A DNA stretch of 64,000 nt from Escherichia coli (lineage in GTDB: Bacteria > Pseudomonadota > Gammaproteobacteria > Enterobacterales > Enterobacteriaceae): the NCBI RefSeq assembly GCF_024502345.1, contig NZ_JALDNN010000001.1. One strand, given 5' to 3'. Under the pieces are notes generated by a model that ran no database searches, had not been told where the DNA came from, and saw nothing but the letters and a program-made list of their open reading frames with translations. Positions 4,456 to 56,530 of this stretch are shown here, in pieces (position 1 is the first letter of the stretch; every line of letters begins with the position of its first letter). The position numbers and the translations under genes are program-made.

Positions 4456-5889
4456 ATGAAAGTAACGCTGCCAGAGTTTGAACGTGCAGGAGTGATGGTG
4501 GTTGGTGATGTGATGCTGGATCGTTACTGGTACGGCCCCACCAGTCGTATCTCGCCGGAAGCGCCGGTGCCCGTGGTTAAAGTGAATACCATCGAAGAAC
4601 GTCCGGGCGGCGCGGCTAACGTGGCGATGAATATCGCTTCTCTCGGTGCTAATGCACGCCTGGTCGGGTTGACGGGCATTGACGATGCAGCGCGCGCGCT
4701 GAGTAAATCTCTGGCCGACGTCAACGTCAAATGCGACTTCGTTTCTGTACCGACGCATCCTACCATTACCAAATTACGGGTACTTTCCCGCAACCAACAG
4801 CTGATCCGTCTGGATTTTGAAGAAGGTTTCGAAGGTGTTGATCCGCAGCCGCTGCACGAGCGGATTAATCAGGCGCTGAGTTCGATTGGCGCGCTGGTGC
4901 TTTCTGACTACGCCAAAGGTGCGCTGGCAAGCGTACAGCAGATGATCCAACTGGCGCGTAAAGCGGGCGTTCCGGTGCTGATTGATCCAAAAGGTACCGA
5001 TTTTGAGCGCTACCGCGGCGCTACGCTGTTAACGCCGAATCTCTCGGAATTTGAAGCTGTTGTCGGTAAATGTAAGACCGAAGAAGAGATTGTTGAGCGC
5101 GGCATGAAACTGATTGCCGATTACGAACTCTCGGCTCTGTTAGTGACCCGTTCCGAACAGGGTATGTCGCTGCTGCAACCGGGTAAAGCGCCGCTGCATA
5201 TGCCAACCCAGGCGCAGGAAGTGTATGACGTTACCGGTGCGGGCGACACGGTGATTGGCGTCCTGGCGGCAACGCTGGCAGCGGGTAATTCGCTGGAAGA
5301 AGCCTGCTTCTTTGCCAATGCGGCGGCTGGTGTGGTGGTCGGCAAACTGGGGACGTCCACGGTTTCGCCGATCGAGCTGGAAAACGCTGTACGTGGACGC
5401 GCAGATACCGGCTTTGGCGTGATGACCGAAGAGGAACTGAAGCTGGCCGTAGCGGCAGCGCGTAAACGTGGTGAAAAAGTGGTAATGACCAACGGTGTCT
5501 TCGATATCCTACATGCCGGGCACGTCTCTTATCTGGCAAATGCCCGCAAGCTGGGTGACCGCTTGATTGTTGCCGTCAACAGCGATGCCTCCACCAAACG
5601 GCTGAAAGGGGATTCCCGCCCGGTAAACCCACTCGAACAGCGTATGATTGTGCTGGGCGCACTGGAAGCGGTCGACTGGGTAGTGTCGTTTGAAGAAGAT
5701 ACGCCGCAGCGCCTGATCGCCGGGATCCTGCCAGATCTGCTGGTGAAAGGTGGCGACTATAAACCAGAAGAGATTGCCGGGAGTAAAGAAGTCTGGGCCA
5801 ACGGCGGCGAAGTGCTGGTGCTCAACTTCGAAGACGGTTGCTCGACCACTAACATTATCAAGAAGATCCAACAGGATAAAAAAGGCTAA
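4456..5889 (+). CDS. hldE: Bifunctional D-beta-D-heptose 7-phosphate kinase / heptose 1-phosphate adenylyltransferase, 477 aa
   Basis: 477-aa ORF with SD AGGAGA upstream; recognised RfaE/HldE sequence; conserved position after glnE. Confidence 0.93.
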
Positions 5890-5969
5890 CCGGAAAGCGG
5901 GTCACAGATCTCGCTTCGTACCTAGCAGGCCTATTGACGCTGTTGCTTTTTCAACCTAGAGTAAAGGAA

Positions 5970-6112
5970 CAAGGGTAAGGGAGGATTTCTCCCCCCTCTG
6001 ATGAGTTGTTAGTAAGTCGGGAAACTTAACAGTAACAACACAACCAGTATGATGACGAGCTTCATCATAACCCTTTCCTTCTATAAGGCCCCTTCCTCGG
6101 GAGGGGCTTTCC
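5970..6112 (+). ncRNA. sibD: Sib-family antisense sRNA antitoxin (SibD/E-like), copy 1; ends approximate
   Basis: Putative promoter TTGACG-17bp-TAGAGT at 5934-5962; fully overlaps the antisense ibs ORF; 3' hairpin GCCCCUU...GAGGGGC + UUUCCCGUUUC at 6088-6118; ~143 nt fits known Sib length; D/E naming tentative. Confidence 0.6.
6009..6068 (-). CDS. ibsD: Ibs-family type I toxin, 19-aa hydrophobic peptide MMKLVIILVVLLLLSFPTY
   Basis: 60-nt minus-strand ORF translated by hand; close match to the Ibs toxin family (cf. IbsC MMRLVIILIVLLLISFSAY); D/E naming tentative. Confidence 0.65.
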   Translation of the reverse strand: MMKLVIILVVLLLLSFPTY

Positions 6113-6345
6113 CGTTTCAGCCCCTTGCTGACTCCCCGATTGTTGATGAGCGCCGGACCCCGCGCAACGCTTTCCCTGAAGCAGTTTTGCCTTCCCCGAG
6201 CGGTCACGCAAAACGCTGCAACGTCCTGAGCATTTGCACCTTTTAGCGGAACGCAGATATAAAAAATCCCCGGCTTTTTGGGCCAGGGATATGTGTTAAT
6301 GAAACCTTCTTGACGCTGATTTTTTTTCAACCTAAAGTAAAGGAA

Positions 6346-6488
6346 CAAGGGTAAGGGAGGATTTCTCCCCCCTCTGATTGGCTGTTAATAAGCTGCGAAA
6401 CTTACGAGTAACAACACAATCAGTATGATGACGAGCTTCATCATAACCCTTTCCTTATACAAGGCCCCTTCTTCGGGAGGGGCTTTCC
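6346..6488 (+). ncRNA. sibE: Sib-family antisense sRNA antitoxin (SibD/E-like), copy 2; ends approximate
   Basis: Promoter TTGACG-17bp-TAAAGT at 6310-6338; overlaps second ibs ORF; same 3' hairpin as copy 1. Confidence 0.6.
6385..6444 (-). CDS. ibsE: Ibs-family type I toxin, 19-aa peptide MMKLVIILIVLLLVSFAAY
   Basis: 60-nt minus-strand ORF in second repeat unit; differs from copy 1 at 4 residues. Confidence 0.65.
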   Translation of the reverse strand: MMKLVIILIVLLLVSFAAY

Positions 6489-9803: not shown

Positions 9804-9925
9804 TGTAGTTTCCCTGTACTGATAGGTGTTGAGTGCCATTGTAGTGCGATAAGGGTAAGTCATAAACCAGAATTATGTGAAGCTATGCGTTGCTGCCGCT
9901 AATCATTAGCGTTATAGTGAATCCG

Positions 9926-10176
9926 CTTATTCTCAGGGCGGGGCGAAATTCCCCACCGGCGGTAAATCAACTCAGTTGAAAGCCCGCGAGCGCTTTGGGT
10001 GCGAACTCAAAGGACAGCAGATCCGGTGTAATTCCGGGGCCGACGGTTAGAGTCCGGATGGGAGAGAGTAACGATTCTGTCGGGCATGGACCCGCTCACG
10101 TTATTTTGGCTATATGCCGCCACTCCTAAGACTGCCCTGATTCTGGTAACCATAATTTTAGTGAGGTTTTTTTACC
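9926..10176 (+). promoter_or_regulatory. FMN riboswitch (RFN element) in the ribB 5' leader
   Basis: Conserved RFN core CAGGGCGGGGCGAAAUUCCCCACCGGCGGUAAA ... AUCCGGUGUAAUUCCGGGGCCGACGGUUAGAGUCCGGAUGGGAGAGAGUAACG; putative -10 TATAGT at 9913-9918. Confidence 0.88.
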
Positions 10177-22809: not shown

Positions 22810-24159
22810 TTACCAGCTTACCTTCGCCTCAAATCCATCTTGTTCCGCATTCCCAAACTCAACATTCATGCCATGCAATTTGGCGATTCGCTGGACAATC
22901 GATAGCCCAAGTCCACTGCCGGTAGCGGTTTGTCCGGGGGGGCGATAGAAGCGTTCGCCAATTCGCGCCAGAGCCTCTGGCGTCACACCGGGGCCGTTAT
23001 CCCTCACGATGAAATTATCAGCATTCAGCGTGACGTCTATCACGCTGCCCTGTGGACTGTAGCGCACGGCGTTATCCAGCAAATTTCGCACCAACAAACT
23101 TAGCAATAGCGGTTGTCCGGTGCGTTTGATGCCCTGGACATTGAGTGTCAGTCGCACGTCAATTTTCGCCTGCTGCGCTGTGTGGTAAATATCCATCACC
23201 GACGATTGCAGGAGATCTTCAAGCGGGATCTCCGCGACGTCCTGAAGGTTATCCAGTGAGTCCAGCCGCGATAGCATGAGCAGTTGATCAACCAGACGAG
23301 TAGCGCGATCGATCCCGGAATGTAATTGAAGCAGTGCTTTTTTCCGCGCCTGCGGATCATCGTCAGAGAGCTGCGCAACTTCGGTTTGCACTTTCAGCGC
23401 TGTTAACGGGCTACGTAGTTCGTGAGCTGCATCGGAGGTAAAGCGTCGTTCTCGAACCATCATCGCATGTGTGCGGGCGAACAGTTGATTTAGCGACTCA
23501 ACCAACGGACGCACTTCGCTGGGTACGCCAGTCGCGTTTAGTGGTTTTTCCGAGTCAGGGTCACGCATACGCAGCGCCAGCGCCAGTTTGTTCAGCGGCG
23601 CGAGTTCACGACCCAATAGTACCATCATGATGATTAACATAATCGGCAGTGCGACCAGCCACGGGATCAATTGCCCGGCAACAATCGCCAGCGCCATGTC
23701 TTCACGGTATTCCCATTCCTGACCAACAACGATGCGATATTTGCCATCAGGTGAGGTCATCCAGACAAAACGCCATTGATCTTTATCGCCCACCAGTTGC
23801 CCGTCAGCAAAACCTTCCCGTTGATAGCTATAAGGAATATCTTCTCCGTTATCGCCATCGTTAAGGACCATTCTGCCGTCGTGGGTAAAGATGGCAAAGG
23901 TCAGCGCATCGTCATCAACATGACCGTGTTTTAATTTATTTGGCGTCTGTGCCATGCGATCCGCCGCGTTGATTTCGTTGAGATCGAGCGTACTTAACCG
24001 CTTGGCAAACAGCATCAGTTGGGTGTCGAACAATTCATCGACGTTATCCGTTGTTTGTTTCCAGGCGACAAAGCTGGAAAGCAGCCAGGTCACCGAGGCC
24101 AGAATTAAAAAGATTAGTGTCAGCCTGACGCGCAGACTAAGACGTTGGGTAAATTTCAT
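22810..24159 (-). CDS. qseC: Sensor histidine kinase QseC, 449 aa
   Basis: Two TM segments, H-box ([12 protein letters not shown]), HATPase_c motifs; 4-bp overlap with qseB. Confidence 0.93.
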
Positions 24160-24815
24160 TTCTCACCTAATGTGTAGCCAATACCATGCACGGTACGAAT
24201 AAAATCACTACCGAGTTTGCGTCGCAGATGATGCACATGCACTTCAACGGCATTACTGGTGACCTCTTCGTCCCAGGTATACAGTTTCTCTTCAATCAGT
24301 TTGCGCGGCAGTACCCGACCAGCGTTACGCATCAGTAATTCCAGCAGGGCAAGTTCTTTTGGTTTCAGTGTTAAGGGTTCGCCAGCCAGCGTGGCGATAC
24401 GTTTGCCGGGGTCGAGCATTACGTTACCGTGGCGCAGTTCGTTGCTGGCCTGGCCGTTGGTTCGGCGCATCAGAGCTTCCAGCCTGGCGGCGACTTCTAT
24501 CAACGCAAAAGGTTTACACAGATAATCGTCAGCTCCCAGACGCAGCCCTTCTACACGTTCCGCCAGCGCATCGCGCGCGGTCAGGATCAGTACAGGCTCA
24601 CGCTGACCTTTTTCTCGCCATTCGCGCAAAATATCGCGACCATCCATGCCTGGTAAGGTTAAATCCAGGATCACCGCATCATAAGGTGCGCTATAAAGCG
24701 CCTCTTTTCCCTGACGACCTTGTGTAAACCAGTCGACGCTAAAACCCATTTTACTAAGGCCCGTTTTGATGCCGTCGCCAATCAGCATGTCATCTTCTAT
24801 CAGTAAAATTCGCAT
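24156..24815 (-). CDS. qseB: Response regulator QseB (OmpR family), 219 aa
   Basis: REC domain with DL..LPGMDG motif plus winged-helix C-terminus; recognised. Confidence 0.93.
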
Positions 24816-24966
24816 TTTTTCATCCCTGCGATAACCGTATTTGCTGCCAGTAAACCGTGTTGTAACGCGCTCTGTACAGCACTAAATTTTATTTTTTTCC
24901 CTTAAGAAGTTGTTAAGGACTATCTTGTTAAATGCTCGGAAACAGACATTAAAGGGAGTAATAAAC

Positions 24967-25359
24967 ATGAAAAAATTCGCAGCAGTAATCGCAGTAATGG
25001 CCCTGTGCAGCGCACCGGTGATGGCAGCAGAGCAGGGCGGTTTTTCTGGCCCATCGGCAACGCAAAGTCAGGCCGGAGGATTCCAGGGGCCGAACGGCAG
25101 CGTAACGACTGTAGAAAGCGCAAAATCCCTGCGTGACGACACCTGGGTAACCCTGCGCGGCAATATCGTTGAACGCATCTCTGACGATCTCTACGTGTTC
25201 AAAGATGCCAGCGGTACTATCAATGTTGATATCGATCACAAACGCTGGAACGGCGTGACGGTGACGCCGAAAGATACGGTTGAGATTCAGGGTGAAGTCG
25301 ATAAAGACTGGAATTCTGTTGAAATTGACGTCAAACAGATCCGCAAAGTAAATCCGTAA
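24967..25359 (+). CDS. ygiW: BOF/YgiW-family periplasmic OB-fold stress protein, 130 aa
   Basis: Track ORF trimmed to MKKFAAVIAVMALCSAPVMA signal peptide; divergent from qseBC. Confidence 0.88.
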   Translation: MKKFAAVIAVMALCSAPVMAAEQGGFSGPSATQSQAGGFQGPNGSVTTVESAKSLRDDTWVTLRGNIVERISDDLYVFKDASGTINVDIDHKRWNGVTVTPKDTVEIQGEVDKDWNSVEIDVKQIRKVNP

Positions 25360-25411
25360 TTGTTACCGCTCCCGGGACGCGTTCCCGGGAATAATTTCGC
25401 AGGGAGGCAAA

Positions 25412-25894
25412 ATGACAAACCTGACACTGGATGTAAACATTATCGATTTCCCATCAATCCCTGTGGCGATGTTGCCGCACCGCTGTAGCCCTGAGTTGCT
25501 CAACTACAGTGTGGCGAAATTTATCATGTGGCGTAAAGAGACGGGGCTTTCTCCTGTTAACCAAAGCCAGACTTTTGGCGTCGCCTGGGACGACCCTGCC
25601 ACCACCGCACCGGAAGCGTTTCGCTTTGATATCTGCGGCAGCGTTAGCGAACCGATTCCCGATAATCGTTATGGTGTGAGCAATGGTGAACTTACCGGTG
25701 GACGTTATGCCGTGGCCCGCCACGTTGGCGAGCTGGACGATATTTCACACACGATATGGGGCATTATTCGCCACTGGCTGCCTGCAAGCGGCGAGAAAAT
25801 GCGTAAAGCACCGATTCTGTTTCACTACACCAATCTTGCCGAAGGGGTGACAGAGCAGCGACTGGAAACGGATGTTTATGTGCCGTTGGCGTGA
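25412..25894 (+). CDS. ygiV: GyrI-like/AraC-effector-domain transcriptional regulator, 160 aa
   Basis: 160-aa ORF; recognised. Confidence 0.88.
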   Translation: MTNLTLDVNIIDFPSIPVAMLPHRCSPELLNYSVAKFIMWRKETGLSPVNQSQTFGVAWDDPATTAPEAFRFDICGSVSEPIPDNRYGVSNGELTGGRYAVARHVGELDDISHTIWGIIRHWLPASGEKMRKAPILFHYTNLAEGVTEQRLETDVYVPLA

Positions 25895-26439
25895 TGGGGA
25901 ATCTTTACCGGAGTGTGAGCCAAATCACTCGCGATAAGTTTGAGCGAACAATGCCACAGGCGTATTGTTGTTGGGCTTATAATTTCTCCGGTAAGGAATA
26001 CCATGTATACGCGAAATTTATTATCCGGTGCGCCGTAAGCCGTCTCGGGGGTATCCATGAGCAAGCCGCACTTATGGCAGGAGGCGCGGGGCACTGGTGG
26101 AGACACAGCTAAACTGGGCTGAACCGTATACTTACAGTCGACTACTTTGATGCTTTAGGCTTCCCTGGACTCGCATAACCTCAACTTCTCGAATCGCCCG
26201 GAGCGGACCCCCATGCCGAGTGGTGTGGCATGGGCGCAACCTTGTGCTGCCCTCTATGCCGATCAAGTCTACAGCAAAGAGTTGTATATCAAGGCACATT
26301 GATGCCTTTATCGCCGTCGGAGCACGTCCGGCGGCGCTATTCACGCTGATCTCCTGTGACTCGACGCGGCAGATAATGTAGTATCTCCGGCAATATTGCC
26401 CCTTTGAAGGCTGGCGAATAAGTTGAGGAATCAGAATTA

Positions 26440-28698
26440 ATGAGCGATATGGCAGAGCGCCTTGCGCTACATGAATTTACGGAAAACGCCTACTTAAACT
26501 ACTCCATGTACGTGATCATGGACCGTGCGTTGCCGTTTATTGGCGATGGTCTTAAACCTGTTCAGCGCCGCATTGTGTATGCGATGTCTGAACTGGGCCT
26601 GAATGCCAGCGCCAAATTTAAAAAATCGGCCCGTACCGTCGGTGACGTACTGGGTAAATACCATCCGCACGGCGATAGCGCCTGTTATGAAGCGATGGTC
26701 CTGATGGCGCAGCCGTTCTCTTACCGTTATCCGCTGGTTGATGGTCAGGGGAACTGGGGCGCGCCGGACGATCCGAAATCGTTCGCGGCAATGCGTTACA
26801 CCGAATCCCGGTTGTCGAAATATTCCGAGCTGCTATTGAGCGAGCTGGGGCAGGGGACGGCTGACTGGGTGCCAAACTTCGACGGCACTTTGCAGGAGCC
26901 GAAAATGCTACCCGCCCGTCTGCCAAACATTTTGCTTAACGGCACCACCGGTATTGCCGTCGGCATGGCGACCGATATTCCACCGCATAACCTGCGTGAA
27001 GTGGCTCAGGCGGCAATCGCATTAATCGACCAGCCGAAAACCACGCTCGATCAGCTGCTGGATATCGTGCAGGGGCCGGATTATCCGACTGAAGCGGAAA
27101 TTATCACTTCGCGCGCCGAGATCCGTAAAATCTACGAGAACGGACGTGGTTCAGTGCGTATGCGCGCGGTGTGGAAGAAAGAAGATGGCGCGGTGGTTAT
27201 CAGCGCATTGCCGCATCAGGTTTCAGGTGCGCGCGTACTGGAGCAAATTGCTGCGCAAATGCGCAACAAAAAGCTGCCGATGGTTGACGATCTGCGCGAT
27301 GAATCTGACCACGAGAACCCGACCCGTCTGGTGATTGTGCCGCGTTCCAACCGCGTGGATATGGATCAGGTGATGAACCACCTCTTCGCTACCACCGATC
27401 TGGAAAAGAGCTATCGCATTAACCTCAATATGATCGGTCTGGATGGTCGTCCGGCGGTGAAAAACCTGCTGGAAATCCTCTCCGAATGGCTGGTGTTCCG
27501 TCGCGATACCGTGCGCCGCCGACTGAACTATCGTCTGGAGAAAGTCCTCAAGCGCCTGCATATCCTGGAAGGTTTGCTGGTGGCGTTTCTCAACATCGAC
27601 GAAGTGATTGAGATCATTCGTAACGAAGATGAACCGAAACCGGCGCTGATGTCGCGGTTTGGCCTTACGGAAACCCAGGCGGAAGCGATCCTCGAACTGA
27701 AACTGCGTCATCTTGCCAAACTGGAAGATATGAAGATTCGCGGTGAGCAGAGTGAGCTGGAAAAAGAGCGCGACCAGTTGCAGGGCATTTTGGCTTCCGA
27801 GCGTAAAATGAATAACCTGCTGAAGAAAGAACTGCAGGCAGACGCGCAAGCCTACGGTGACGATCGTCGTTCGCCGTTGCAGGAACGCGAAGAAGCGAAA
27901 GCGATGAGCGAGCACGACATGCTGCCGTCTGAACCTGTCACCATTGTGCTGTCGCAGATGGGCTGGGTACGCAGCGCTAAAGGCCATGATATCGACGCGC
28001 CGGGCCTGAATTATAAAGCGGGTGATAGCTTCAAAGCGGCGGTGAAAGGTAAGAGCAACCAACCGGTAGTGTTTGTTGATTCCACCGGTCGTAGCTATGC
28101 CATCGACCCGATTACGCTGCCGTCGGCGCGTGGTCAGGGCGAACCACTCACCGGCAAATTAACGTTGCCGCCTGGGGCGACCGTTGACCATATGCTGATG
28201 GAAAGCGACGATCAGAAACTGCTGATGGCTTCCGATGCGGGTTACGGTTTCGTCTGCACCTTTAACGATCTGGTGGCGCGTAACCGTGCAGGTAAGGCTT
28301 TGATCACCTTACCGGAAAATGCCCATGTTATGCCGCCGGTGGTGATTGAAGATGCTTCCGATATGCTGCTGGCAATCACTCAGGCAGGCCGTATGTTGAT
28401 GTTCCCGGTAAGTGATCTGCCGCAGCTGTCGAAGGGCAAAGGCAACAAGATTATCAACATTCCATCGGCAGAAGCCGCGCGTGGAGAAGATGGTCTGGCG
28501 CAATTGTACGTTCTGCCGCCGCAAAGCACGCTGACCATTCATGTTGGGAAACGCAAAATTAAACTGCGCCCGGAAGAGTTACAGAAAGTCACTGGCGAAC
28601 GTGGACGCCGCGGTACGTTGATGCGCGGTTTGCAGCGTATCGATCGTGTTGAGATCGACTCTCCTCGCCGTGCCAGCAGCGGTGATAGCGAAGAGTAA
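26440..28698 (+). CDS. parC: DNA topoisomerase IV subunit A, 752 aa
   Basis: 752-aa ORF; catalytic-Tyr region and GyrA-like sequence; recognised. Confidence 0.95.
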
Positions 28699-31205: not shown

Positions 31206-32642
31206 ATGGATGGCATGGGATGGATGATTATTTTGGTACTTCCCTTTCTTTGGATGGGGTATGGACTGGCGTTGTTAATCATAATGGGGTGCGCTTTTGA
31301 ATCTAAGGGGATTCGTCGCGTTCTGCTATGGGGTGTTGCACCCCAGTTTATTATTCTTTGTATTACGACCTTATTGCTTTACTGGATTAACTCTCGGTTA
31401 ATTTATGTTTTTGTCTTTTTTCAGCCAGTTTTATGCATCACCACGGCAATTTTTTTGTTTGCTGGTAAAAAAACACAATATTCCAGATTGCTGTTTACTC
31501 TGTCTCATGTGATTTTTCTCGCTGGAGTTTTATATCAGGGGTATAGGGAAAATCTGCAATACATAATTAATAATGACTGGAAGGAATATAAAATAACGCG
31601 TTTATTTGAGCAAGTGCAGGACAATGGGGCGCATGCGCTGAAAAACGATGTAACTTGTTCAGAATTAATGCAACTACTTACACTGGCAGCGGAACGTGAT
31701 GACGTCAAAGAAGAGACGTTACGTACTCTTATTGCAAAGAGAGTATCGCCATTTCTGACAATGTCAGATAATTGTACGGGTGAGAATTCAGTAGAGATTT
31801 ATTCTGTATATACTACGCCTTTTATGGCGGCTATTCAAAATCATAATATACATTCTGTCCGTTTTTTTAGTCAATTGCTTATGGGAAACTCACCAAAAGC
31901 AAAAAATAATCGTGACATTGTGCGCCGGGCAAACCCTTTGATCGAAGTGTATAAATATAGTCATGGTTCAAAAAAACAACGTAAATCAGGGTTAGAAATA
32001 AGTAAGCAATTTATGGCTATTATGCCAGAACTATTAACAGATGCCGTCTGGCGTGCCGTGCTCAATGTATATGATGCCGATGCAGCACGATGGTTCTGGC
32101 GTAAGCAACCACCAGAAAATCGGTTGTATCGCTTAAAGGCTATGGCATTAATACCACAAACGGATGCGCTGTTGGCGGATATTCGACAAACTCCAGAGGT
32201 ACTGAATATCTCGTCTGAGAGTGATCCGAATGAAGAGGAGTTTCTCCATTTCTTAATTAATGGGGGCGATATCACTGTAATACATGCACTGGTTGAAAAA
32301 GGAATAGTTAACTGGCAGCACCTTATGAACATTGAGGGGTTTGATAAGGACCCCCTAATTTGGGCTATTTCAAAGCTGGGAGAAACTGACAATGACCGGG
32401 AGGTTTTGGCATTAATTATTCATGATATTAATGCGCAAAACGCACTGCCGGAGGATCGCATTGCCAAATATTTAACGCGGACGGGATCAATGGGCGATAT
32501 TTTTTTAAAAGCGGGCTTACATTGTGATAAGTTATATTCGGCAATTGAGTCCGACAAAAAGCGAAATAATGGTATGTATAGTCAAAACGCCAGGGAAGAA
32601 GTGGATCGCGTATGTACTCCGGTGATGCTGCCAACTTACTGA
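31206..32642 (+). CDS. Hypothetical membrane-anchored protein, paralog A (~474 aa natively): 4 predicted N-terminal TM helices + C-terminal domain with ankyrin-like repeat motifs; last codons supplied by IS1
   Basis: ATG with SD AAGGA 6 nt upstream; AT-rich; hydrophobic segments at ~5-29, 39-60, 65-87, 94-111; motifs such as TTPFMAAIQNHNIHSVRFFSQLL resemble ankyrin consensus; not recognised as any K-12 gene. Confidence 0.7.
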   Translation: MDGMGWMIILVLPFLWMGYGLALLIIMGCAFESKGIRRVLLWGVAPQFIILCITTLLLYWINSRLIYVFVFFQPVLCITTAIFLFAGKKTQYSRLLFTLSHVIFLAGVLYQGYRENLQYIINNDWKEYKITRLFEQVQDNGAHALKNDVTCSELMQLLTLAAERDDVKEETLRTLIAKRVSPFLTMSDNCTGENSVEIYSVYTTPFMAAIQNHNIHSVRFFSQLLMGNSPKAKNNRDIVRRANPLIEVYKYSHGSKKQRKSGLEISKQFMAIMPELLTDAVWRAVLNVYDADAARWFWRKQPPENRLYRLKAMALIPQTDALLADIRQTPEVLNISSESDPNEEEFLHFLINGGDITVIHALVEKGIVNWQHLMNIEGFDKDPLIWAISKLGETDNDREVLALIIHDINAQNALPEDRIAKYLTRTGSMGDIFLKAGLHCDKLYSAIESDKKRNNGMYSQNAREEVDRVCTPVMLPTY

Positions 32643-32675
32643 TTTAGTGTATGATGGTGTTTTTGAGGTGCTCCA

Positions 32676-32951
32676 GTGGCTTCTGTTTCTATCAGCTGTC
32701 CCTCCTGTTCAGCTACTGACGGGGTGGTGCGTAACGGCAAAAGCACCGCCGGACATCAGCGCTATCTCTGCTCTCACTGCCGTAAAACATGGCAACTGCA
32801 GTTCACTTACACCGCTTCTCAACCCGGTACGCACCAGAAAATCATTGATATGGCCATGAATGGCGTTGGATGCCGGGCAACCGCCCGCATTATGGGCGTT
32901 GGCCTCAACACGATTTTCCGCCATTTAAAAAACTCAGGCCGCAGTCGGTAA
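32676..32951 (+). CDS. insA: IS1 InsA, 91 aa
   Basis: Recognised sequence [43 protein letters not shown]... Confidence 0.95.
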
Positions 32952-33373
32952 CCTCGCGCATACAGCCGGGCAGTGACGTCATCGTCTGCGCGGAAATGGA
33001 CGAACAGTGGGGATACGTCGGGGCTAAATCGCGCCAGCGCTGGCTGTTTTACGCGTATGACAGGCTCCGGAAGACGGTTGTTGCGCACGTATTCGGTGAA
33101 CGCACTATGGCGACGCTGGGGCGTCTTATGAGCCTGCTGTCACCCTTTGACGTGGTGATATGGATGACGGATGGCTGGCCGCTGTATGAATCCCGCCTGA
33201 AGGGAAAGCTGCACGTAATCAGCAAGCGATATACGCAGCGAATTGAGCGGCATAACCTGAATCTGAGGCAGCACCTGGCACGGCTGGGACGGAAGTCGCT
33301 GTCGTTCTCAAAATCGGTGGAGCTGCATGACAAAGTCATCGGGCATTATCTGAACATAAAACACTATCAATAA
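32870..33373 (+). CDS. insB: IS1 InsB' frame (InsAB' transposase made by -1 frameshift from insA)
   Basis: Overlapping -1 frame ORF inside IS1; recognised. Confidence 0.9.
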
Positions 33374-33451
33374 GTTGGAGTCATTACCTGTACTCCCGCA
33401 AAATAGGTGCAGTTTGGCGCGGTTAAGGAATAAAAAATAAAGGACTAAGCC

Positions 33452-34862
33452 ATGCGTAACGATGAACTTCTTCACCATTTTACTTTTACATTGCTTATGT
33501 TGGGTGGCTATCTACTGACTCTGTTCATCGTTATCGTCCTTTCCTTTTTTCGCCCACTATGCCGAAAAATGGTCTTCCATGGCATATTGCCACAATTGAT
33601 GATGTCGCTAATGGTGTCGCTCGGTTTATATTATCTGGAACGATACTCTATTGCGGTATGGGCCTTACTGGATTCTGTTTGGATATTATTCCCTTGCCTG
33701 TTATTGATCATAGTGATAAATAAATGGTCAAAACGTTCCCTTGTATGGATGAGTGCTTGTCATATTATGTGCTTGCTGTTGTTACTCTGGCAGGTGCAGC
33801 CCACGTTATTTAAAATCAGCTTTTATCACCAACAATTAAGTCACCTGGCTCAGGCAGAACAGGAAAATTTCCGCACACTGGATGCGATTCACGATACGCA
33901 ACGTCTGGAAGAGATGTTGCTGGTAGCGTTGAAATCCCCGGAAAATAAAACCTCTGAAAATGCCTTTCGCTATCTGTCAGGGCGAATCTCACCATTTGCT
34001 ATACCTTCCATTGGCGATCAAAAGTATTCTACCCGCACTTTTTTTACGATTGCGTTGGAACATTACAACGCCCGCGCCATCCGCGCGTTTAGCCGCTTTC
34101 TGCAAGGAAATTCCTCAAAAGCGCAGGAATATCGCGCGATTGTTCATCAAAACAATCCACTGCAGCAGATGTACCGGGGAATAAGTTTGCCAATTCGTTT
34201 TAGTGAAGAAGAGATCGCCCGCCACATTGTTGCCGCTCGCGAGATAAGCCTCACCTTACTGCCCCTGATGCCAGAATTATTAAGCGAAGAGGCGTATGCA
34301 AATGTCATTGATGCTTATGACAGCGCAACGCTGAAGGCTTTTTGGCAGATCCAGCTGCCCGCCCACGCCGGTTTTACGCCTGGAAGCGATGTCGGTAATT
34401 CCTATGACAGCGGCACTCGTTCAACAGGTGAGGGAGTCACCAAAGCGGCTTGAACTGAAAGATAAAAGTGGCAGGACAGTACTAACTTACATCGTGCGCT
34501 TTGGAAATATTGCCGCAGTACAGGCACTGATTGACGCTAATCTGATCGACTGGCAACGGCTTCGCCAATCGACAGAAAGGTCAACACCATTATTACTGGC
34601 CACCTGGCGACAAAAATACGACGATGATCATGTAATCTTCCCATTGATTTTAAAGGACATTCTGGCAAAAAATACACCACCGTCGGCAGAGGAAATAATG
34701 AACTGCATCAAGGATGGTATGACCGCAGATGATTTTTTATCTGCCGGAATGAGCAACACGCAATTCTGTTCTGCGATTGAACAAAGCCTCCAGGCGAAAA
34801 CGTCAGTATTACCGGCGAATCGATTACGCCATCTGCAATCCTCGCTGTGTGCAAAGCTGTAA
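33452..34862 (+). pseudogene. Paralog B of the membrane-anchored ankyrin-like protein, split by a frameshift near 34350-34370 into ORFs 33452..34453 and 34389..34862
   Basis: Good RBS (AAGGA-7nt-ATG); N-terminal TM helices; aligns with paralog A across the frame switch (A: FWRKQPPENRLYRLKAMALIP; B frame1 FWQIQLP, frame2 PPTPVLRLEAMSVIP). Confidence 0.6.
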
Positions 34863-39499: not shown

Positions 39500-39603
39500 A
39501 CGTTCCTCCTTTATATGAACTCACCGGAGCAGGCTCCGGTGAGGTGTTGTGAACTTAAGTCTGGACGAAATGCCCGAAAACGAAAGTTTGAGGCGTAAAA
39601 AGC

Positions 39604-45313: not shown

Positions 45314-45525
45314 GCCTGATGCGCTACGCTCATCAGGCCTACAAAATCTATTGCAACATGTTGAATCTTCGTGCGTTTGTAGGCCGGATAAGGCGTTCAC
45401 GACGCATCCGGCATTAGGTGCTCAATGCCTGATGCGCTACGCTTATCAGGCCTACAAAATCTATTGCAACATGTTGAATCTTCATGCGTTTGTAGGCGGA
45501 TAAGGCGTTTTCGCCACATCAGGTA
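45314..45525. repeat. BIME: two tandem ~113-bp units each containing a pair of inverted REP elements
   Basis: GCCTGATGCGCTACGCTTATCAGGCCTACA and TGTAGGCCGGATAAGGCG...CATCCGGCA motifs, duplicated at 45314 and 45427. Confidence 0.85.
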
Positions 45526-56414: not shown

Positions 56415-56530
56415 AGCTTTCGTAGGCCTGATAAGACGCGGCAGCGTCGCATCAGGCATTGTGCTCGATTGCCGGATGCGGCGTGAACGCCTTATCCGGC
56501 CTGGATGGCTTGCTGCGACGAACGCTAACC
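56415..56530. repeat. REP elements between hybG and yghU
   Basis: GTAGGCCTGATAAGACGCG...CGCATCAGGC and TGCCGGATGCGGCGTGAACGCCTTATCCGGCCT. Confidence 0.8.

Follow-up and report, generated by a model that had tools for sequence, protein, structure and literature searches.

A probable old ygiS-deletion allele with insertion-sequence and group II intron relics in the ygiV-parC spacer of Escherichia coli

Taken together, the comparative data suggest with good confidence that the short spacer between ygiV and parC in this E. coli strain represents an allele of the ygiV-ygiS-parC locus that is old and without function: ygiS has been deleted, and the relic of an insertion sequence (IS) and an intron lies in its place. 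The finding is real but ordinary, as the allele is common and its intron component has already been published. What is added here is a full dissection of the scar, together with the argument that an IS200/IS605-family element caused the deletion of ygiS.

In the window (the whole 64,000-nucleotide stretch of DNA analysed), the ORF listing gives the gene order qseC, qseB, ygiW, ygiV, spacer, parC, plsC, ftsP. Because ygiV ends at 25894 and parC starts at 26440, the spacer occupies 25895-26439 and is 545 bp long; an earlier note on this DNA had given that length, and the ORF coordinates agree. The neighbouring genes and each segment of the spacer are as follows, with window coordinates.

22810-24159, minus strand: qseC (ORF listing).
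24156-24815, minus strand: qseB (ORF listing).
25412-25894, plus strand: ygiV, encoding a GyrI-like/AraC-family regulator, intact, 160 aa (ORF listing).
25895-26002, plus strand: ygiV-ygiS intergenic region in its mqsRA-less ancestral form, 108 bp, collinear with O157:H7 and isolate 127.
26003-26024, plus strand: first 22 nt of ygiS (ATG...TTTATTAT) with the TTAT target at the end, 100% identical to K-12 (locus L001, 3435-3456).
26025-26266, plus strand: foreign filler, 242 bp, without a K-12 counterpart.
26025-26038, plus strand: probable first 14 nt of an IS200/IS605-family left end (CCGGTGCGCCGTAA), a 13/14 match to the left end of the reference IS copy L021.
26039-26178, plus strand: the ~46 C-terminal codons for the reverse transcriptase/maturase of a group II intron (tblastn; 93% nucleotide identity to the full-length intron L019).
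26179-26263, plus strand: 3' end of the intron RNA, terminus ...GCCGAT (alignments and folds).
About 26193-26224 and about 26226-26261, plus strand: decayed domain V and domain VI, respectively (alignment to relatives and folds).
26210-26234, plus strand: hairpin of the earlier note, CCCATGCC/GGCATGGG, with one arm from the 3' strand of domain V and the other from the 5' strand of domain VI.
26264-26266, plus strand: CAA, probably the 3-nt tip of the right end of the IS (...GGATGT/intron/CAA; comparison with L020 and L019).
26267-26302, plus strand: final 36 nt of ygiS, from codon 524 through the TGA stop, which follow TTAT (nt 1569-1572) in intact ygiS.
26303-26439, plus strand: ygiS-parC intergenic region, unchanged relative to K-12 (blastn).
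26440-28698, plus strand: parC, encoding topoisomerase IV subunit A, intact, 752 aa (ORF listing).

By blastn, window positions 25395-25896 match K-12 ygiV; the YgiV protein is 99.4% identical to that of K-12, and genomes with an identical allele annotate the gene under that name. On the opposite side, the block 26261-26939, which runs from the end of ygiS into parC, corresponds to 5001-5679 of K-12 locus L001 at 98.97% identity. Positions 25902-26024 reproduce the K-12 mqsA-ygiS intergenic region and ygiS nt 1-22 at 100%, and 26025-26260 has no K-12 match. Also retained in the relic allele are the promoter, ribosome-binding site and start codon of ygiS; read directly, this start codon now opens an ORF of 11 codons (26003-26038). 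A terminator-like hairpin is present inside the ygiV-ygiS intergenic region at 25951-25963.

The K-12 record reads ygiV-mqsR-mqsA-ygiS-parC, with 2775 bp from ygiV to parC. The two genes are therefore not directly adjacent in K-12, in agreement with the gene order given in the earlier note. Searches of the 64-kb window by tblastn (E<=1) return no match for K-12 MqsR or MqsA, and the K-12 YgiS query recovers its last 13 residues only, at 26261-26299. With the K-12 mqsRA islet as blastn query, the sole match is a 123-bp intergenic stretch plus the start of ygiS. An intact ygiS (an ORF of ~535 codons) is not present; nt 1-22 and the last 36 nt are left. The proposal that mqsRA and ygiS are missing at this locus is thereby confirmed.

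The 108-bp ygiV-ygiS interval is the same in O157:H7 and isolate 127, both of which carry ygiS without mqsRA. In K-12, the 927-bp mqsRA islet (L001 2407-3333) stands in place of 6 nt, GGGAAT. A single YgiV scan of species-representative genomes provided five other Escherichia. In E. albertii, E. whittamii and strain SCPM-O-B-8794, ygiV is followed by ~110 bp, an intact ygiS and parC, without mqsRA; MOD1-EC7003 and E1V33 contain different, independent multi-deletion ygiS pseudogenes without an intron. As three outgroups are without mqsRA, the islet was gained in the K-12-type lineage and its absence here is ancestral.

This polarity bears directly on the suggestion of the earlier note that the spacer may be a deletion scar. 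If a K-12-like ygiV-mqsR-mqsA-ygiS-parC ancestor had lost ~2.4 kb in one step to leave 545 bp, the longer arrangement of K-12 and the survival of both ygiS ends would follow naturally. However, the ygiV-ygiS interval is base-for-base collinear with mqsRA-less genomes and has GGGAAT at the islet site, the absence of mqsRA from three outgroup species already refutes the mqsRA half of the suggestion, and 242 bp of the spacer are foreign DNA and not K-12 sequence. A one-step loss is accordingly regarded as extremely unlikely. Only ygiS was deleted, and the scar contains the remains of mobile elements.

The filler itself is assigned, by alignment, to 14 nt of an IS left end, 225 nt of an intron 3' end and 3 nt of an IS right-end tip. 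Analysis of the central part identifies it as the 3' end of a class C group II intron. A sensitive plasmid search (PLSDB) places matches to the filler under the 3' ends of ltrA genes and ~100 nt beyond, in Cupriavidus, Pseudomonas putida, Azospirillum and Sinorhizobium, in each case in the orientation of the window's plus strand; the phage collection has no match to the filler. The three loci checked (Cupriavidus, P. putida and S. meliloti) are group II introns by Rfam, and their intron 3' regions are 77-79% identical to that of the window. At the protein level, 26041-26175 encodes ~45 C-terminal residues of the intron protein (tblastn with three LtrA queries, E 5e-11 to 1e-7). A full-length intron in E. 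coli MFDS1022581 (L019), whose protein carries RVT_1 and GIIM, shares 93% identity (211/228) with window 26038-26266. This locus, like those in Cupriavidus, P. putida and S. meliloti, carries RF02001/RF01998 matches, both models matching in L019. The 455-456-aa protein of the relatives has RVT_1 and GIIM without an endonuclease domain. In two relatives (L006 and L007), the intron lies 7 nt past a terminator hairpin and T-run, and in L019 it lies 7 nt past the hairpin of an IS right end; in the window, the intron's own 5' junction is deleted. The class C assignment of the fragment is also found in Table S2 of PMC3522654.

Little of the intron machinery survives. The window has no match to RF02001 or RF01998, the ribozyme domains I-IV being absent, and its intron remnant has no Pfam match to RVT_1 or GIIM. 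The domain V covariance model RF00029 gives no window match even at E<=10; it also misses the intact L019, and L007 barely passes (41.5 against a threshold of 40). Rfam searches of 24800-27000 at E<=1 and of 25990-26300 at E<=10 yield chance snoRNA-like matches only. The protein tail is interrupted by an in-frame TAA at 26110-26112, where the relatives have a glycine or serine codon, ahead of its natural TAA at 26176-26178. In the RNA, substitutions fall on paired positions of domain V (26202, 26211 and 26219), and changes at 26231, 26238-39 and 26253 damage domain VI. In the intact relatives, domain V takes its canonical fold and domain VI has a bulged A, at -42 to -50 kcal/mol (z -2.6 to -4.7); the corresponding stretch of the window folds at -27.7 kcal/mol (z -0.83). 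With domain V damaged and both domains I-IV and the reverse transcriptase gone, the remnant cannot splice or move.

This decay also accounts for a hairpin whose role the earlier note had left unexplained. The hairpin exists, although the 7-bp stem at ~26209-26231 described previously was misplaced by about 2 nt: CCCATGCC (26210-26217) pairs with GGCATGGG (26227-26234), forming 8 bp around a 9-nt loop. In the decayed intron, one arm is the 3' strand of domain V and the other the 5' strand of domain VI; two substitutions (26211 G>C and 26231 G>T) have made them fully complementary, hence the apparent hairpin. As a structure it does not exceed chance: the 78 nt around it give the energy and z value stated above for the window, 41 of 200 shuffles fold equally well, and the minimum-energy structure does not include the hairpin pairing. 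The hairpin is without a role of its own.

The two small ORFs, 25891-26112 (plus strand, 73 aa) and 26132-26344 (minus strand, 70 aa), are both present, and neither has a Pfam match. The earlier statement that they are without recognisable similarity is wrong, as 26041-26175 encodes the C-terminus of the intron protein. The ORFs are chimeras of intergenic DNA, out-of-frame ygiS and the intron protein tail up to its premature stop.

A variant copy of the allele (L011) has the same junctions and is 96.7% identical overall. At 26202, 26211 and 26253 it still has the ancestral base. Across the relic, the window and L011 diverge by 4.6%, which equals or exceeds the divergence of the flanking intergenic DNA. 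The shared junctions in a diverged copy, together with this level of divergence, indicate that the event is old and that the relic is under no visible constraint.

The same comparison weighs on the idea that the relic was co-opted, as a small protein (73 or 70 aa), a small RNA or a structured element affecting parC or ygiV. Such a use would fit an allele that is stable, frequent and at least 99% identical in most carriers, and that still has the start codon of ygiS together with its promoter and ribosome-binding site. Against it, the ORFs are chimeric and without Pfam matches, the fold is no better than that of shuffles and matches no Rfam family, and the 4.6% divergence between the two copies affects paired positions. 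A scan of 25700-26600 finds promoter- and terminator-like signals at or below shuffle expectation. The high identity among carriers is explained by their clonal relatedness (phylogroup B1). Co-option is thus highly implausible. Nothing suggests a function for the relic: there is no Pfam or Rfam match, no signal above that of shuffles and no structural stability.

Next, the two ends of the filler can be considered. The boundaries of the reference IS are proven, at the level of sequence comparison, by the IS with the intron (L019), the IS without it (L020/L021) and an empty site (L022). The intron-free copy L020 ends ...GGAGGATGTCAA/CAAACAGG, and the IS-free site L022 reads GGCTTAT/CAAACAGG. From the intron-free IS and the empty site, the left end of the IS starts TTAT/CCAGTGCGCCGTAAAACC; in L021 this end is CCAGTGCGCCGTAA, with the boundary TTAT/CCAG... 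fixed by L022. The reference IS (L021) encodes Y1_Tnp and TnpB domains, has subterminal hairpins and a right end of TCAA, and sits 3' of TTAT without target duplication. In the intron-bearing IS (L019), the right end reads ...GCCGAT/CAA/flank, downstream of tnpB.

Both junctions in the window are consistent with these boundaries. The left junction, ...ATTTATTAT/CCGGTGCGCCGTAA, consists of ygiS nt 19-22 (TTAT) followed by a 13/14 match to the IS left end. The right junction reads GAT/CAA/GTCTACAGC, where GTCTACAGC (GTCTAC...) follows the TTAT at nt 1569-1572 in intact ygiS; all intact ygiS alleles compared have TAT in place of the CAA at 26264-26266. Of the five TTAT sites in ygiS, two coincide exactly with the breakpoints. 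As the terminal matches (13/14 for the left end and 3/3 for the right-end tip) are too short to stand alone, the assignment of IS ends draws its support from the TTAT context and the known homing site of the nested intron. The ORF listing and Pfam reveal no tnpA or tnpB in the spacer, and the IS subterminal hairpins are likewise absent from it. An intact IS left end at ygiS is found in none of the 5426 complete E. coli genomes, and no intermediate is seen. Since both breakpoints lie directly 3' of TTAT, the IS is the most likely cause of the 1550-bp deletion.

Other assignments of the filler ends were considered and rejected. GTGCG at 26028 as the intron 5' end would make the filler a joined pair of intron 5' and 3' ends, but the protein-tail homology is continuous from ~26039. 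Taking the 14 nt as an intron 5' end gives a 7-nt match, against 13/14 for an IS left end preceded by TTAT. CAA as part of the intron was discarded because the intron-free IS (L020) already ends ...GTCAA. The resemblance of GTGCGCC, inside the 14 nt, to a group II intron 5' end was accordingly judged the poorer match.

One possibility without any IS would be that the intron retrohomed directly into ygiS as a 5'-truncated copy, the cDNA end then being joined upstream with deletion of 1.5 kb. The E. coli copies found elsewhere are indeed 3' fragments with differing 5' ends (73, 113 and 135 nt), and intact ygiS has an 8-bp stem (CATAATCC-CCA-GGATTATG) beside the junction. However, the relatives insert 7 nt past a hairpin, and the ygiS stem reaches right up to the junction. 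A 3' exon beginning with CAA would be required, which the TAT of the intact ygiS alleles contradicts and the IS right-end tip accounts for exactly. The 14 nt at the 5' junction, moreover, match the IS left end and follow TTAT. Truncated retrohoming is therefore considered improbable.

The junctions also speak to a second possibility, namely that a pre-formed IS/intron relic on foreign DNA replaced ygiS by illegitimate recombination, with no transposition of the IS into this site. Similar relics (intron 3' end plus CAA) are present on E. coli plasmids in unrelated contexts, and no intermediate is seen at ygiS. Yet an imported relic would have come to rest on two of just five TTAT sites in ygiS, in the orientation expected of the IS, with its left end after one TTAT and its right end ahead of the base next to the other; for random illegitimate joins the chance of this is ~1e-5. 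Import of a finished relic is thus very improbable.

If the preferred reading is correct, namely that the IS entered ygiS and its remains now mark the deletion, the history likely involves: an ancestral locus of ygiV, 108 bp, ygiS and parC, without mqsRA; entry of an IS200/IS605-family element (tnpA and tnpB) into ygiS, 3' of TTAT and in the orientation of ygiS; and loss of ygiS nt 23-1572, between the TTAT at nt 19-22 and the TTAT at nt 1569-1572. The deletion could have arisen by recombination between two IS copies, or through TnpA, had it linked the right end of the IS with the second TTAT of that strand. The IS would already have carried, or would later have gained, the class C intron at the homing site of its lineage, 7 nt past the right-end hairpin. 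An internal deletion would then have removed a stretch that began at nt 15 of the IS left end and reached about codon 410 in the gene for the intron protein. Finally, the relic would have decayed, acquiring the premature stop in the protein tail and the pair-breaking changes in domains V and VI. Just 14 + 3 nt of the IS are left. Because no intermediate occurs in 5426 genomes, the sequence in which the steps took place and the mechanism of the deletion are inferred from the junctions.

The allele is widespread. A blast search with the spacer against 5426 complete E. coli genomes finds it at >=80% coverage in 1353 (~25%), in agreement with the alternative allele that the earlier note had considered, and the filler occurs in 1356. 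The body of ygiS is present in 4056 genomes (75%) and the mqsRA islet in 2299 (42%), so that, by subtraction, about 1750 have ygiS without mqsRA; these are megablast counts, which diverged alleles, e.g. of mqsRA, may escape. In the collection, mqsRA and ygiS are single-copy at the ygiV-parC locus. The islet is therefore not common in E. coli in the sense that had been implied. Named carriers of the spacer allele include IAI1, SE11, 55989, E24377A, O104:H4, B7A, ECOR29 and Shigella. These strain names, together with the strains named in the tables of PMC3522654, point to phylogroup B1 and Shigella. The parts of the toxin-antitoxin distribution literature that were covered contain no explicit table of mqsRA by phylogroup.

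For this strain, the consequence is that YgiS is missing, that MqsR and MqsA were never at the ygiV-parC site, and that the region upstream of parC is untouched. More generally, K-12 is not the reference state of this locus, as the mqsRA islet was gained and is found in ~42% of complete genomes. With ~25% of genomes, B1 strains and Shigella among them, also without ygiS, what K-12 has taught about MqsR/MqsA, and about the uptake of bile salts that depends on YgiS, is not transferable to those strains. YgiS promotes the import of deoxycholate according to work cited in PMC6918082, in whose text the link to MqsR is disputed. Loss of ygiS recurred independently in three Escherichia lineages; one possibility is that it was favoured, e.g. 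through reduced deoxycholate uptake. In annotation, small ORFs are the wrong label for the 545 bp; a remnant of a ygiS pseudogene, with relics of an IS200/IS605 element and a group II intron, should be recorded instead. The case also illustrates that short and apparently unique filler at a deletion junction can be resolved into named mobile-element ends, and that TTAT junctions suggest how the deletion originated. Its weight for biology at large is little.

Further readings of the relic are more speculative. What it would record is a three-layer nesting, in which ygiS hosted an IS200/IS605 element whose right end hosted a class C intron. Two readings that go beyond this are conceivable, although doubtful. 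The first of these is that the intron lineage may specialise in the right ends of TnpB-bearing IS200/IS605 elements, inserting 3 nt from the tip. This homing position would lie between the scaffold and the guide of the TnpB guide RNA. If the intron is so specialised, the guide RNA could be rebuilt only by splicing, and the intron would be a group II counterpart of IStrons. A live relative occurs in three genomes, where the intron lies within the right end of an IS that bears TnpB; it is possibly of some interest for research on TnpB guide RNAs and intron-transposon nesting. The second is that TnpA may have deleted ygiS by way of the IS right end and a second same-strand TTAT. If true, the locus would offer a naturally occurring case of one-ended adjacent deletion by a single-strand transposase.

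Compared with the K-12 locus, the window shares the flanking genes and both ends of ygiS, and the ygiS-parC intergenic region is 99% identical. The window has neither the 927-bp mqsRA islet nor the intact 1608-bp ygiS of K-12. The derived state is that of K-12 for mqsRA and that of the window for ygiS.

Class C (IIC) group II introns have no endonuclease domain and insert a few nucleotides past terminator-like stem-loops. The relatives L006, L007 and L019 fit this description, being without an endonuclease and placed 7 nt past a hairpin. In contrast to such introns, the window keeps the last 225 nt only, without domains I-IV or a reverse transcriptase. Elements of the IS200/IS605 family transpose by the "peel and paste" activity of the Y1 transposase TnpA and carry TnpB as an accessory gene. 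The junctions here resemble theirs in lying 3' of a fixed tetranucleotide (TTAT) without target duplication, but the window retains just 14 nt from the left end and 3 nt from the right, with no hairpins and no genes. The IStrons of Clostridia combine a group I intron with IS200/IS605 ends, next to tnpB. Here, by contrast, the intron is of group II, class C, and represents a separate insertion into an IS right end, as the empty IS (L020) indicates; in the window, moreover, it is a dead fragment.

The closest published counterpart is E.c.F12, a class C group II intron fragment of 118 bp with 79% identity to P.s.I1, listed in Tables S2 and S3 of PMC3522654. It has 10 orthologues in B1 E. coli and Shigella, among them IAI1, SE11, E24377A and 55989, and is described as chromosomal and outside mobile islands (PMC3522654; Leclercq & Cordaux 2012, PLoS One 7:e52268). 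The IAI1 coordinates given in Table S3 (3251207-3251324) map to window 26146-26263, and inspection of IAI1 places the site inside the 545-bp ygiV-parC spacer; E.c.F12 and this part of the window are thus identical in sequence and at the same locus. The supplements of that paper do not mention ygiS, and its consulted parts mention no IS; a literature search for ygiS together with a group II intron found nothing. In comparison with the 118 bp of E.c.F12, the fragment extends here to 225 nt, by protein-level homology and a 93% identical full-length relative, and is placed within the IS200/IS605 remains that replaced ygiS.

The group II intron whose 3' end survives in the relic at ygiS has a full-length relative. 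In E. coli MFDS1022581 (L019), an IS200/IS605 element encoding tnpA and tnpB adjoins yedK, and its right end holds a full-length class C group II intron:

NZ_CP169399.1 2048499-2051529, locus of the intron-bearing IS200/IS605 element (L019)

The intron lies 7 nt 3' of the right-end hairpin of the element and 3 nt short of its tip, in the orientation of tnpB. From this position, we infer that it would separate the scaffold from the guide of a TnpB guide RNA. Locus comparison shows that the same yedK site also exists with the element but no intron (L020, L021) and free of the element altogether (L022). Places covering at least 80% of the intron query are present in only 3 of the 5426 complete E. 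coli genomes searched.

The insertion also touches its neighbour, as seen where yedK ends with and without the element:

L021 3425-3428, end of yedK with the IS200/IS605 element
L022 220-223, end of yedK without it

Where the element has inserted, the yedK stop codon is displaced; the TCA at the right end of the IS provides the new stop, and YedK is one codon longer.

Further 3' fragments of the relic's intron lineage occur on E. coli plasmids, at 196 places in total and with 83-86% identity. Three were placed in context:

L003 4001-4134, plasmid pYLMB50a, adjoining bcsC
L004 4001-4111, plasmid pQ501, upstream of sopA
L005 4001-4073, plasmid 3 of MINF_9A, alongside phage genes (holin, tail fibre)

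Their 5' truncation points vary, and in two of the three the fragment is followed by CAA, as in the window relic.

Reduction of ygiS is found elsewhere in Escherichia:

L013 6481-7062, reduced ygiS, Escherichia sp. MOD1-EC7003
L015 3689-4280, reduced ygiS, Escherichia sp. E1V33

Only ygiS fragments are left in each: the first retains nt 464-538, 617-683 and 1361-end, the second nt 84-254 and 1354-end. The internal deletions differ and are independent, and neither reduced gene carries an intron or IS relic. Counting the window allele, ygiS has been lost three separate times in the genus.

In E. coli 04A19CPO007 (L011), which carries a 96.7%-identical copy of the relic allele, parC differs from the window parC (26440-28698) by 4.8% overall, with changes at 99 of 753 third codon positions. 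For plsC and the spacer between parC and plsC, the difference is 0-1.8%. The sequence comparison suggests that this parC segment is recombinant or unusually diverged.

Elsewhere in the window, Rfam matches above the gathering score comprise two Sib antitoxin RNAs, an FMN riboswitch, the ES173 sRNA and naRNA4 repeats (5934-6459, 9925-10073, 39538-39601, 45382-45452, 56425-56501); the search for tRNA genes across the 64 kb gave none. The genes ftsP and ygiQ, neighbours in K-12, are here separated by an islet:

31206-34862, islet between ftsP and ygiQ
32870-33373, insB-like ORF of an IS1 within it

The islet encodes a hypothetical membrane-like protein of 478 aa; a related second gene within it is broken into two ORFs, of 333 aa and 157 aa. 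At this position AH04, the closest complete genome, has two hypothetical genes of ~470 aa.
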